Part shown: piece by piece, positions 49,001 through 58,000 of the stretch
Layout: each line of letters begins with the position of its first letter
Position numbering within the stretch: the first letter of the stretch is position 1
Assembly (NCBI RefSeq): GCF_017348835.2
Contig: NZ_CP072312.1
Reading direction: 5' to 3' (one strand)
Source of the DNA: Escherichia coli
GTDB taxonomy: Bacteria; Pseudomonadota; Gammaproteobacteria; Enterobacterales; Enterobacteriaceae
DNA: 64,000 nt
Position numbers: made by a program

Positions 49001-52000
49001 ACGGTGCGCCATCAATGGCAAAAAGCTGCAGGCCGTGCCAGTCATCCTTCAGGTAACGTTCCGAGCCCCATGTCTGTGCGGTCTGGCGGAAGAGCCATTC
49101 CACCGGGGCGGCCCCCACGCGCTGACGCGCCTGGGTGACAGCGCTGCGGGCCAGCAGGTTCATCCCCGCTTCGCCATCCGCGCTCAGGTTCAGACGGCGA
49201 ACCACATCGGTAATTGGCTCATTGCGGAAAAAGGCCATGGCCACCACCATCCAGATAACCATGTCCCCCGGTAAACGACGGCGGCGAACGGTCGCATGCG
49301 CAGAAAGCGTCAGACAGTGCTGTATCCACTCGACGGGAAGGTGCTCTGCAAACAGTTGTGCAGAGGGCGGTGGCATAAGCGGATGGTCACTGAAATCGAG
49401 CAGATCATTGAGAAGTGGCATAAGAAAACGGCTCCCTGTTGTGGAAGCCGTTATAGTGCCGCAGTTTAAGGATCGGTCAACCGATCCTTAACTGATCGGC
49501 ATTGCGCGAAGCGGGAACCCATCTTATATATAACCGGTAACTGCGCAGCCTCCTGCCAGACCATTTTTCGCGGGCACAATATTTACAGACAACCGGAAAG
49601 CCAGTTGATGAAATTGAGGTATATCAGACGACACAGCGATGCCGAAGAATGATAATATAAGTAAAGCCCCGAAAATTTTTCGGGGCTTTACTTATATTAT
49701 CATGACTTCCACTTTCTGAACTGTTCGGCAATCACCCATAACGCCTTGTTGATTCTTATATCACCATCAATACCTGTAATGGCTCTTGTCCTGGTATTTT
49801 TCCCGGAGGCACTTCGCCCCGATAATCCACCTTTTATCATATTCTCCTGAGCCCGCTGCCAGGTTGTCCAGAGATCGTTCTGTTTATTCTCCCGACGACG
49901 GGGAGTAATTATCTGTTCAGGCGTCACTGGCGTTTTATTTTCATCTTCATACCTGACCATCAGTGCAGCTCTGCCAAATAAATGTTGCTCGTCACTGTTA
50001 AGATGAATTTCTTTCATCGCCTCCATATTATCAGTGACCTTATCAAAGACACCGAGTACTTCATACGCTCCCTCGATAACCTGCCCGACAATATCACCTT
50101 TATGTGGAACGCGGATTTCGCCAAAATTATTTCCGCACACCAGGCCATTTGTGCAGACAAAACGAAAAATTCCGGGGATCATCTGATAACTGGATGAACC
50201 ATCATGTGAATTAAGCAGGATAATTTCAGGAACTTCCTGCCCGTTAATATGCCCTTCCCTGCGAAGACGTAACATATGTTTACTGTATTCGCGACGTCCC
50301 AAATCACGAACCCGACTCTGACAGGCAAAGAATGGCTGGAAACCTTCATCACGTAACTTATTGATGATATTGTTGGAATATACGTATAACGTTCACTCCG
50401 GGACTCATGTTTATCACCGGAAAATACCGAAGGCACGAACTGCATTAATTCATCATCCGTTAAAGGACGTTCACGGCGGATGGAATTATACCGACCAAAA
50501 CGGGAAGCTAATCGCATAACAGCTACTCCTTTATGAAAGAATAAATTTAATAAAAAACTTTTCCGCTTAATATCATCCCTCCCGGTCACTATTAACAAGA
50601 TTGCAACAATCAGGAGAAATATTCATCACATCTGGTCAGCAGATCGCCCGGATATCGAGGCCGGCACGCTTAATCTGACGCAGGAACTGTTTGAAGTGAT
50701 CGGCTTCCGCAATGTTGATATGGCGGAACTGCGTATCCACACCCCGGCTGAGCGCGTAGCTATAGCTGAAGGCCATCTTTTCCGGGTGGCTTTTGCGATA
50801 TTTTTTCAGCTCAGTCAGGCTGCTGAATTCCAGGACGTCCCACTCTTCCCCGGTGTTTTTTTCTTCCCGGCAACAAGAAGCGTGTACGACGCGGTGTTAA
50901 CGTGGATATTTCGGGTACTCATCCTGCTTTCTCCTCTCTCTGGTTTTCAGCCCCCATCATCTTTTGAGTTTCGGGAGCCGCGGTTTTGACGTTTTGCGGG
51001 GATCTGCCTTTTGTTCCCTCCGGTATTCACCATCACCTTTTTGAGAACCTTCGCCGCAAGGGGCATCACTGCCACGGCCGGAAACGACTGTCCGGGGGCA
51101 GACCGCAAAAGTTTTTGCCTGCTTTTGGGCAAAAAGTTTTGCGGGATGTACATTTCACCCTGGACTGGCGGAGACGTCTTTGCCCCCGGCGACAGGGGCT
51201 TAAACAGGTGAATGGCACCGGACACAACAACGGGCAGGGACCCGCCGCAACGACGGAGAGCGCGTGCGCGAAACGGCGTTGCCCCTTACATCCCGGCGGC
51301 CTTTTGCCGGAATGCCAGGAGCGCAGGCCACGGCGCGACAGAGGCGGTGCGACCGGAACGGTCGCTGCAAGCCAGGGTTTCGCGTCAGGGATGGAAGCCC
51401 GCCAGGGCGGAGACAGCTTCGCTGGCTCCGTTCACGACAGCCCGCCCCGCCAGGGGGACGCCCGGAAAAGCCATAAACAGGAGAGGAACGGAAAGAAGAG
51501 GAAGAGGAAAAAGAAGAAGAACAATAACAAGCACGGTAACCATAGAAAAATAACATCAGAAAAAAACATTCCGGACACATCACAAACAGGAAGGGTAACG
51601 GGCGACGCGTCAGCATGGCCCGCTTCCCTTCCGGCAGGCGTCAGCCTGCCAGGGGTTTTCGCGCGGGCTGACAGGCGGCCTCCACCGCCTGCCCTGTATC
51701 ACCTGTTTCTGCTGCCCTGAAGGATATAGTGACCACCGAGGAAAACCGCCTGCTGATTCGCCACAAAATCGCAGATTTCATCAACAATCTGCGCGGTGGT
51801 GAGCGGTTTCTGCCCCATATCACGACGCCGCACATTAATCACGGCCCTGTAATTACGCAGAATTTCGCGGGTTTCCGTGTTGATATTCATGACATGTGCT
51901 CCCCGTCCAGCGCCTGTAACACAACGTCCATTGCTTCGCGTTCTTCCCTGACGAATGCGTCACCGTCGCCCCCGTTCTCACTCCCGACGGCATACAGGCG

Positions 52001-55000: not shown

Positions 55001-58000
55001 TAAGCGCATTCGTGGCGATAGCCCACATATGCGGCCTTCGATGTGTAGGTTTTGGTAAATACCAGGTGGCCAACCACGCTGAATCCCGCATTTTTCCAGG
55101 CGGCCATAAAGCGATCGACGCGGTTCCAGCCATAGAAGCTCACCATCAGCGCATCTTTTTTCAGCACTCGGTACATTTCATTACAGGCCGGTTGCAGCCA
55201 TTCATCGGTTTTATCGCCGGCGATGGTACGCCCCTGACGGTCACGGAAACCGACGAGATATGGCGGGTCGGTGAGGATGAAATCGACAGCATTGCCCGGA
55301 AACGTGGCCATAACACGCACGCAGTCACCCTGGATAAAACGGGACATAACAGCACTCCTTCTCTTACAGAGGGCACCGGGAGGGCGCCCCTGTGGCGCCC
55401 GTTCCCCGCTGCCTGTGGGCTGTTCACCGCGTCCGGTAACGGGTCAGGCCGACCGTGGAATACCGCAGCCGTCGTCTTTTTGACGGCGAGGATATGCCGC
55501 GAAAGCGGCTTGAAGGGCGTTCATCAGAAAAGGGCGACGGGCTGGCGTACACTGTCACCAACGCCAGCCGGGAGCGGTAAAAGCGCCCGTCCCGTGCCCG
55601 GCCGGACGCGGGACACTGACCACAGGCAGCGTTCCTGCCGCGCCGCGTCAGCCGGCGCAGTAAAAAGAGGAGCCCGGCGACATCCTTTACCGGAAAAGAA
55701 ACGGGCGGTTGCCCGCCCGTCTCCGTCATACTTCATCCTCCATAATGCGCCACATTGTCGACTATCCACGCCGGTCCGGTGACTTCCGGCAGCTCATCGT
55801 CATCTGTCGGGGAAGACCATTCAAGTTCCCCCCCACAGCACATCAACGAGCTCTCCACGCTCATACAACTGCCAGCCACAGAAATCACAGCCCTGTTCGG
55901 CATACCAGTGCTCCAGTGTGCAACTGAAACGGCGGCTTAATTCTGCAATAACGTCGCTTTCTGGCTGACACCACGGCGTGTCAAAATCCACCTGAATGAA
56001 GTTGTCTCTCTGACTGCTGATATTCACCTCATACCCCACAGGCCACTTCACGCCATACTGTTCGGTATACCAGTGATATGCAGAAGGAACACCGTTCAGA
56101 ACACCACCGTTAAAGCCGTTTACTTCAACATCCAGGCGGCTGGGCATCAAAATGGGGTACCGTGGTTTCAGCTGAAGTCGGTGAAATTTTCGGAGCCGGT
56201 CATCGTCTTCTCCAGTAATTACCCGCTATACGCATCGATGTCGAACAGGGTCATGGTTCATCTGGAGGCGCTGGCACCGCGCGTTGAGCAGTACTCGATT
56301 GACGAGATGTTTCTCGACGTGCGAGGTATTGACAGCTGCATCGATTTCGAGGATTTCGACCAGCAGCTGCGTGAACACGTCAGGAACGGGACTGGCCTGA
56401 CTATCGGTGTCGGAATGGGGCCAACCAAAACGTTGGCAAAGTCAACACAATGGGCTTCCAAAGAGTGGCCACAGTTTGGTGGCGTGCTGGCATTAACGCC
56501 GGACAATATCCGCCGTGCGGAAAAACTGCTGTCACTGCAGCTGGCGCACGAACCCTGTATTTATCAGGAAGAACTTCAATGTGGTTCTGGAGAGAAAGGT
56601 CCGGGAACTCAATGGAGAAAGCTGTATTTCACTGGAGGAAGAACCGCCCCCCCAAACAGCAGATAGTCTGCAGCCGGTCCTTTAGAGAGCGCGTCACGAC
56701 ATATGAGGCCATGCGCTAGGCCATCTGTCGGTACGCTGAGCGTGCAGCTGAAAAGCTGCGGGGCGAGTGTCAGTTCTGCAGACATATCGCCATTTTTTTG
56801 AAGACGTCACCGTTCGCAGTAAACGAACCGTATTACGGGAATGTGGCCAGTGAAAAACTGCTCATCCCCACGCAGGATACACGGGATATCATTGCCGCTG
56901 CCGTTAGAATTCTGGACAGGATATGGGTGGATGGCCATCGATATGCAAAAGCGGGTTGCATACTCAACGATTTCACTCCTACCGGGGTTTCGCATTTGAA
57001 CCTTTTCGATGATACTCAGCCCCGGAGCAACAGTAACCAGCCGTTGAAAGTCGTGGACAGCATTAACCATTCCGGTCTGGGGAAAGTGTGGTTTGCAGGC
57101 CGAGGCATTGCGCCAGAATGGCAGATAAAGCGTGAGATGTCGTCACCGGCATACACTACCCGCTGGAACGAACTACCGGTCGCCAGACTTTGAAAAAAAG
57201 AAATTCATGGTGATTTCACTATGAAAGAATTAAAAAAAATACTTTATATTCAGTAAAATAAGCATGAAAAAAGCGTGGTGAAAATTGCAAAAAAAGGATG
57301 CCATTTGGCATCCTGATATTAACCCGGCATATCCTATTCAGGCAGTTTTCTTAGAATGTTTTTTATAGCCTCATCGATTTCTAACTGCACCTCATTAGAT
57401 ATGCGGGAGAACTCATAAACAACAAGACGCTTTCTGGGGTCAGTCTTCTTTCTGGCAAATTGGTTACGATCAGAAAACTCTTTCAACTTCTCAGTTTCCA
57501 CTGTTTTTACAGGCCGGTCTGTAAGCAATTTTCCTTCAGACCTGAAGACCGCCAGGATTTTGCTTTTCTCAATTGTTGGATAGTCAGGTAAAGCCATCAG
57601 TTTTTGGCGAACTCTATCCATAAACTCTTCCACTGACATTTTTTTGTTGGTTGCCTTTTCAGACAGTTTCAACAAAAATTGATAGTCCGACAGCGAAATA
57701 TCATTGATTATCGGAAATACAGAGATCATTTCATCCGGTACTGATGCCGCCTGAAATGCGCGTGTTACTTTTGCCGGAGAGATGCTTTCAGCCTGAGCGA
57801 TCTCTTCTTTTGTCATACTTGCCCCATAAGTAACTTCAAGGCGTTTTCCTAGTTCTCGGAGGCTATGCTCTCTGGCTGTCTGTATATCTTTTGCAAGTTG
57901 TCTCGCGTCGGCAATATCAATACTGTCTTTTGTAACCAGTATTTCGAATTTTACGTTGTTATAGATACAGGCAGCACGACGACGCGTACCGTCTAATACT

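Follow-up and report, generated by a model that had tools for sequence, protein, structure and literature searches.

The closest described relatives of the locus analyzed here are the leading regions of the F plasmid and of pESBL, an IncI plasmid of Escherichia coli O104:H4. (Wen et al., NAR 2025; PMC12672017) applied donor elimination, RNA-seq and 5' rapid amplification of cDNA ends (5'RACE) to pESBL and distinguished three classes of promoters acting on single-stranded DNA (ssDNA). Class 1 corresponds to Frpo/ssi, class 2 is found upstream of klcA and ardA, and class 3 upstream of the gene of the methylase M.EcoGIX. The mapped starts depended on ssDNA, and the expression was short-lived, lasting longer in a uvrD mutant. 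F has conserved copies of classes 2 and 3, and its operons of klcA and of the M.EcoGIX homologue were induced early in transconjugants. A preprint on F itself (bioRxiv 10.64898/2026.01.09.698686) describes its leading region as four operons with one ssDNA promoter each. There, ssp2 controls yfgB (ArdB) and stalls the synthesis of the complementary strand at the base of its stem until UvrD resolves it, and its deletion (Delta-ssp2) made transfer less efficient when the recipients carried EcoKI or EcoGIII or were non-isogenic. As for the methylase, M.EcoGIX methylates SAY in ssDNA only and shields pESBL as it enters the recipient (Fomenkov et al., 2020; PMC7736820). We have compared with these systems the segment 49700-56150 of a 64,000-nucleotide (nt) stretch of E. 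coli DNA (contig NZ_CP072312.1 of assembly GCF_017348835.2; the window from here on), located on the leading side of the origin of transfer (oriT) of an enterohaemorrhagic E. coli (EHEC) virulence plasmid. We conclude with high confidence that this segment corresponds to the conserved leading region of the F/IncI1 type, in its oriT-distal part, and carries ssDNA hairpin promoters. The module is thus one already described, with promoters, methylase and KlcA/ArdB characterized in F and pESBL. Work on those two plasmids has established its importance: with it, plasmids of the F-like and IncI groups, which are the chief vehicles of resistance and virulence genes in Enterobacteriaceae, evade restriction during the first minutes that follow their transfer.

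The nic sequence GTGGGGTGT/GGTGC (47354..47367, + strand) is an exact match to the F-type sequence, and we take the cleavage to occur at 47362/47363 from what is established for the F oriT. With nic on the + strand, the + strand is the transferred (T) strand and the leading side corresponds to the higher coordinates. The segment starts, as first reported, about 2.3 kb from nic on that side (position 49700), and 1.43 kb of this distance is an insertion of the IS4 family. Every credible gene of the interval 49700-56150 lies on the - strand and is directed toward oriT. Seven intact - strand open reading frames (ORFs) are found between 51699 and 55347, grouped in two clusters. The oriT-distal cluster contains, in order of transcription, the methylase gene, a gene for a 73-amino acid (aa) protein (orf73), a first DUF1380 paralogue (DUF1380a) and a gene for a 258-aa protein (orf258). 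After a gap of 416 nt come klcA, a second DUF1380 paralogue (DUF1380b) and a gene for a 63-aa protein (orf63). The first-pass annotation had described these as operons with overlapping stops and starts. Only the pair DUF1380b/orf63 does overlap (ATGA, 51887-51890) and only the pair methylase/orf73 abuts, the other spacings being 11-46 nt (within the clusters, 0, 11, 45, 46 and -4 nt).

The comparison with F (NC_002483, 53.4-58.6 kb) shows the same gene order, orientation and ORF lengths, apart from a deletion of 8 aa in klcA, and the nucleotide identity is 93.4% between window 56138-50943 and F 53376-58621. The two differ in that F still has, between its class-1 promoters Frpo2 and Frpo1, the genes ssb, yfjA, yfjB, psiB, psiA and flm, as well as intact copies of ygeA and ygfA. 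In the same way, pESBL shows 93.0% identity to the window over 56146-51629, with the same seven-gene cassette and both hairpins. pESBL is, however, self-transmissible, with a relaxase of the MOBP type, has an intact 308-aa DUF1281 gene, and carries downstream ssb, psiB, psiA and ardA, the latter preceded by a second class-2 promoter, all of which are missing in the window. The distribution of the module is wide, since matches are found in at least 5000 plasmid records of Escherichia, Klebsiella, Salmonella and Shigella, and in 112 of the best-scoring 5000 a single stretch accounts for at least 80% of the 6.9-kb query. Six of the ORFs could be compared codon by codon with F and pESBL (klcA falls outside this set), and their dN/dS (nonsynonymous to synonymous substitution rate) values were between 0.04 and 0.28, indicating that they are real genes under purifying selection.

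Each cluster is preceded by a large, GC-rich and imperfect hairpin, as had been noticed at first sight. The first, ssp2, is a class-2 region located at 52758..53173 (+ strand), with its hairpin at 52794-53031 on the T strand. The arms (52794-52825 and 53000-53031) are 32 nt long and 88% complementary, and the hairpin ends 37 nt before the start of klcA at 52757, a leading-region gene directed toward oriT. Folded as ssDNA (52785-53040) it reaches -77.7 kcal/mol, with a z-score of -6.9, and none of 200 shuffled sequences was as stable. The second, the class-3 region ssp3 (55348..55760, + strand), has its hairpin at 55407-55631, also on the T strand, with arms of 30 nt (55407-55436 and 55602-55631) that are 83% complementary. 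Its ssDNA fold (55400-55640) has -72.8 kcal/mol and a z-score of -5.9, again with 0 of 200 shuffles as stable. The G+C fraction is 0.69 at the ssp2 hairpin and 0.66 at that of ssp3 versus 0.48 in the whole window. An Rfam scan of 46000-58000 gave nothing at the hairpins, as expected for DNA elements. It recognized FinP and the 5' untranslated region of traJ, and everything else was noise below threshold. The sequence of ssp2 is 96.8% identical to the F ssp2, 96.1% to the region upstream of klcA in pESBL and 86.8% to that upstream of ardA in the same plasmid, and 82% identical to the Frpo'4 candidate of (Samuel et al., 2024). ssp3 is 97.6% identical to its counterpart in F and 96.4% to the region upstream of ecoGIXM in pESBL. 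The genes flanking the two regions have synonymous divergences (dS) of 0.10-0.50. The hairpin regions are therefore conserved more tightly than the synonymous sites of their neighbors, indicating constraint on non-coding DNA.

In ssp2 we found a -35-like hexamer, TTGCAT (52986-52991), that is fully paired in the hairpin, and a -10-like hexamer, TAAGAT (53007-53012), located in the 3' arm opposite a mismatch bubble of 3 nt. This arrangement agrees with that of Frpo'4 (Samuel et al., 2024) and, tentatively and judging from the sequence, such a geometry would let the 5' arm act as a template leading straight into klcA. We have also considered that the hairpins might be ordinary terminators or repeat elements and that the clusters use conventional duplex promoters. 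It is true that any inverted repeat exists in duplex DNA too, and a stem of the terminator kind followed by a T run is found within the ssp2 intergenic region, just after orf258 and between the two operons (53148..53166, - strand), conserved in F and pESBL. Yet ssp2 and ssp3 span 225-240 nt and have branched interiors, far above the size of a terminator. A scan of the duplex found no sigma-70 consensus in either intergenic region, and the orthologous regions have mapped starts that depend on ssDNA, with a transient expression that is prolonged in the uvrD mutant (PMC12672017). This explanation appears to us very improbable.

The first gene after ssp3 codes for an orphan N6-adenine DNA methyltransferase, orthologous to M.EcoGIX (54664..55347, - strand; NCBIfam PRK13699, E 4e-150). 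The protein has 227 aa with the DPPY motif at residue 27 and is of the beta-class N6-adenine type. Its identity is 89.9% to M.EcoGIX of pESBL over 227 aa and 99.1% to the homologue in F, with dN/dS between 0.07 and 0.12. Its neighbors are orf73 and the ssp3 hairpin, and no nuclease family was found adjoining it by NCBIfam, PHROG and PADLOC searches, so that its description as an orphan that opens one of the operons was correct. The 73-aa protein is acidic and its gene abuts the methylase stop codon (54442..54663, - strand). It belongs to phrog_4830, of unknown function, without match in Pfam, and is 98.6% identical to the pESBL protein and 75% to that of F (aa identity), with dN/dS of 0.04-0.18. 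The alleles of these two genes form a mosaic, the methylase being F-like (97% nucleotide identity, versus 87% to pESBL) and the adjoining orf73 pESBL-like (97%, versus 80% to F). Such a pattern suggests, at the level of the sequence, recombination between variants of the leading region. Next is DUF1380a (53996..54430, - strand; phrog_9024, E 5e-72), with 144 aa from the ATG and an isoelectric point (pI) of 4.6, 92% identical to pESBL and with dN/dS of 0.16-0.24. The cluster ends with orf258 (53174..53950, - strand), of the YchA/YubG/NgrC family. Searches against Pfam (with the protein and with an alignment of 22 sequences), NCBIfam, PADLOC and the Protein Data Bank (PDB) by sequence gave nothing for it. 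Its predicted fold was confident and had no close structural relative.

The ssp2 operon starts with a klcA/ardB-type anti-restriction gene of 133 aa, orthologous to F yfgB (52356..52757, - strand; Pfam PF03230, E 1e-15). Its product matches the solved structures of KlcA (PDB 2kmg, E 1e-11) and ArdB (PDB 2wj9, E 1e-3) and shares 90-91% identity, over the aligned columns, with its counterparts in F and pESBL. It has lost in frame 8 residues (PDGGGYMM, between two PDG repeats) that F and pESBL keep. Inhibition of type I restriction has been reported for ArdB of R64 and is implied for yfgB of F (bioRxiv 10.64898/2026.01.09.698686). DUF1380b (51887..52309, - strand; 140 aa, pI 4.5) was recognized by Pfam PF07128 (E 8e-4) and phrog_9024 (E 3e-5). 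It shares 26-28% identity and the invariant motifs with DUF1380a, so there is one paralogue per operon, and its dN/dS is 0.08-0.09. A search of the PDB by sequence gave no match for it, and its AlphaFold2 (AF2) model, with a predicted local distance difference test (pLDDT) score of 49.8, was too poor for a fold search. The last gene, orf63 (51699..51890, - strand), overlaps DUF1380b by 4 nt and codes for a basic protein of 63 aa (pI 9.8), 94% identical to those of F and pESBL with dN/dS of 0.14-0.15. It had no family match in NCBIfam or PHROG. Apart from the methylase, the products of the two clusters had been characterized at first as small acidic proteins without any assignable family. Five of them are indeed acidic (pI 4.5-5.6), but orf63 is basic, and KlcA/ArdB and both DUF1380 proteins can be assigned. 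Profile searches, one of the checks proposed at the time, placed KlcA/ArdB and DUF1380, related orf73 to an unannotated PHROG and left orf63 unmatched.

If the locus works as its counterparts do, during conjugation the + strand would enter the recipient 5'-first from nic. Three long hairpins (the third one, of class 1, is described below) would fold while this strand is single-stranded, rebuilding duplex -35/-10 elements from which the host RNA polymerase, with the incoming strand as its template, could transcribe the genes that follow. ssp3 would drive the M.EcoGIX-type methylase, orf73, DUF1380a and orf258. The methylase would modify adenines of ssDNA at the degenerate motif SAY, and the plasmid would thus be protected from many restriction enzymes before becoming duplex. 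ssp2 would drive klcA/ardB, DUF1380b and orf63, with KlcA/ArdB presumably inhibiting type I restriction, and a roadblock at ssp2 like that of F, lasting until UvrD melts the hairpin, might prolong this early expression. Conversion to duplex would destroy the hairpins and shut the genes off. The first-pass annotation had suggested single-strand promoters and an early anti-restriction role, and experiments on the orthologues of F and pESBL, 93% identical, back this proposal. For the window itself, our data concern the sequence, the orientation, the stability of the hairpins, orthology, purifying selection and a recombination junction. The activity and the transcription start sites of the promoters, the specificity of the methylase, the anti-restriction activity and the behavior as a roadblock are attributed to it by homology to the published experiments.

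A different emphasis is possible, namely that the hairpins are mainly signals for priming or replication control of the complementary strand (primer RNA of the ssi type, roadblocks) and that gene expression is secondary. Transcripts from Frpo prime DNA synthesis in vitro, according to the citations of Masai and Arai (1997) in PMC7736820 and PMC12672017, and the stalling at the base of the F ssp2 stem (bioRxiv 10.64898/2026.01.09.698686) fits this role as well. However, the same preprint reports that swapping F ssp2 for ssp3 restores transfer into the EcoGIII host, which indicates that the downstream expression matters on its own, and in pESBL there are 5'RACE starts and induction across the operon (PMC12672017). 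The two roles are, besides, compatible with each other. We regard it as improbable that priming is the main one.

Several observations weigh against hairpin promoters that drive anti-restriction genes in this particular plasmid. The linear spacer between the hexamers of ssp2 is only 15 nt and each hexamer matches the consensus at just 3-4 of 6 positions, so the -35/-10 assignment has to be considered tentative. In ssp3 there is no convincing -35/-10 pair, and what we see in the 3' arm is a bubble of mismatched bases around GACACT. A generic scan for sigma-70 promoters in duplex DNA flagged none of the three hairpin promoters, a result that neither supports nor refutes them. The internal deletion of 8 aa in KlcA could matter for its activity. 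In the window there are no mating-pair genes, so that the module would act only if the plasmid is mobilized in trans, and the neighboring leading genes are pseudogenes.

The third hairpin, which the first description did not mention, is a hybrid class-1 (Frpo/ssiD) region (50943..51484, + strand; hairpin at approximately 50979-51260). It is 92.3% identical to F ssiD over 351 nt (window 50951-51288), and its T-strand fold has a z-score of -5.6. The oriT-distal part resembles Frpo2/ssp1b and the remainder Frpo1/ssp1a. In a three-way alignment, the informative sites flip cleanly from the Frpo2 type to the Frpo1 type between 51239 and 51233. Besides, window 51484-49505 aligns to F 63458-65455 with 96.8% identity, and its part 50943-51484 aligns also to F 58080-58621, the overlap corresponding to Frpo2 and Frpo1, the pair of class-1 promoters in F. 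The clean switch and the overlapping F segments indicate that homologous recombination between the two repeats has eliminated a block of 4.8 kb, ssb-yfjA-yfjB-psiB-psiA-flm. Loss by Frpo1 x Frpo2 recombination had been flagged as possible by (Couturier et al., 2023; PMC9849209), and the window is a natural case of it in which the SOS-inhibition genes, ssb and a killer of the hok type have been removed. F Frpo/ssiD (Masai and Arai, 1997; Couturier et al., 2023, PMC9849209) forms the same long T-strand hairpin, but the copy in the window is a Frpo2/Frpo1 recombinant that precedes only pseudogenes. A similar case is found when pO111-CRL115 is compared with pO26-CRL125 (PMC3817090), with a single hybrid Frpo repeat in place of ssb and the SOS-inhibition genes. 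There the backbone is IncI/IncZ and a 9.7-kb ssb-psiB-psiA-ardA block was lost, whereas in the window the backbone is F-type and the block is of 4.8 kb. The frequency of the deletion among plasmids could not be counted with a 951-nt junction query, since the normal Frpo1-ygeA arrangement spans more than 80% of it, and the 112 records given above, among the best-scoring 5000, are a better figure for it.

The absence of ssb, psiB, psiA and ardA had been noticed from the start, and indeed none of them, nor yfjA, yfjB or hok, gave any tblastn match in the whole 64-kb window, but the classic anti-restriction gene klcA/ardB is present. It had been proposed that the other ORFs are candidates for the role of the missing genes. 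The absence of ssb, psiB and psiA is a simple deletion between two Frpo repeats and does not imply such a replacement. The hybrid hairpin precedes ygeA and ygfA, and both are frameshifted, so that it heads a decayed third transcription unit that had been overlooked as well. ygeA/yubL (50639..50922, - strand) gave two tblastn high-scoring segment pairs in different frames against the 95-aa protein of F. The same was found for ygfA/yubM (DUF932; 49703..50517, - strand) against the 273-aa protein, a gene that is intact in related plasmids. At the other end of the segment, the DUF1281 (YubB-like) pseudogene (55736..56153, - strand) keeps residues 170-308, with a frameshift at residue 277, and has lost residues 1-169 of the 308-aa gene. 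The ORFs 49700-50598 and 55821-56150, at the ends of the segment as delimited in the first-pass annotation, are thus pseudogene fragments, the latter an internal fragment of DUF1281.

Public records annotate coding sequences (CDS) inside two of the hairpin promoters. One, at 55424-55729, is a 101-aa "hypothetical protein" that overlaps most of the ssp3 hairpin. The other, 50947-51153, is an ORF of 68 aa that some GenBank records label as a "single-stranded DNA-binding protein". We rejected its identification as a remnant of ssb, since the ORF had no PHROG match, the SSB protein of F gave no tblastn match and its position is inside the ssp1 hairpin. Both of these RefSeq/GenBank calls are probably annotation artefacts.

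The state of the plasmid raises another question, which is whether the module could be an idle relic, its hairpins never made single-stranded by conjugation and its genes silent and decaying because the plasmid is not self-transmissible. The transfer (tra) region is reduced to traM (46657-47040, intact) and a fragment of traJ, truncated by an element of the IS3 family, after which comes the ehx operon, and ehx, etp, katP and stcE take the place of the tra operon. The IS4-family element lies inside the priming signal ssiE, the genes from ssb through psiA are deleted, ygfA, ygeA and DUF1281 are pseudogenes, and KlcA has its internal deletion. The evidence opposed to this is that all seven ORFs retain the length of their F and pESBL orthologues (except for the 8 aa of klcA), six of them with the low dN/dS given above, and that both hairpins are 96-98% conserved. 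Furthermore, nic and traM are intact and traI/traX are found in related records, so mobilization in trans is possible. On the other hand, the low dN/dS values come mostly from the history shared with conjugative relatives and do not prove a present-day function. We consider a relic unlikely, and favor a leading-region module with working hairpin promoters. Although not self-transmissible, this EHEC plasmid still has both distal operons in an intact form, hairpins included, and the decay affects the proximal genes.

The region had also been put forward as the likeliest place in the window for an undescribed function. This does not hold, since the promoters, the methylase and KlcA/ArdB have been characterized and the families of the remaining proteins are already catalogued. 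(Samuel et al., 2024; PMC11541004, Supplementary Table 1) name YchA, DUF1380, the methylase and KlcA among the eleven largest families of leading regions. These four are their families 7-10, with median ORF positions 19, 21, 16 and 18 from oriT. Families 6 and 11 (positions 15 and 20) are probably, to judge by position, DUF1380b and orf73. The small proteins are therefore recognized unknowns rather than new ones. That at least one of orf73, DUF1380a, DUF1380b, orf258 (YchA/YubG) and orf63 is a new effector of plasmid establishment is possible, if somewhat doubtful. It might act by inhibiting some defence system of the host, or as a cofactor of the methylase or of KlcA. The idea was already advanced for these families by (Samuel et al., 2024; PMC11541004). 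The molecular roles of these small conserved proteins would be better pursued in F or pESBL, a decaying EHEC plasmid being a poor model.

With regard to the replicon, the 64 kb of the window come from an EHEC virulence plasmid of the IncFIB type and include katP, stcE, the etp genes of type II secretion and ehxCABD. Records of the pO45 and pO103 types are 100% identical to it across the 6.9 kb queried. Between nic and the segment, gene X (47361-47963) is followed by the IS4-family insertion (48072..49504, - strand; transposase ORF 48084-49421), which splits the F-type ssiE. The two halves of this signal (47958-48071 and 49505-49587) share an overlap of 8 bp, consistent with a target-site duplication of the element.

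Leading-region islands are often bordered by umuDC-like genes. Here, between the leading region and sopAB, there are + strand fragments of a Y-family polymerase gene of the UmuC/ImpB type (56073-57193), with about 66-69% nucleotide identity to the pESBL gene; they are remnants of umuDC-like genes. Within 51485-51698, between orf63 and the ssp1 homology, we found a purine-rich tract, GGAAAGAAGAGGAAGAGGAAAAAGAAGAAGAAC (+ strand), and F and pESBL carry differing hypothetical ORF annotations at this place. Finally, at the 3' end of ygfA there is a perfect palindrome (49649..49703, with no assigned strand) with arms of 27 nt and a loop of 1 nt, similar to a bidirectional terminator and also present in F.

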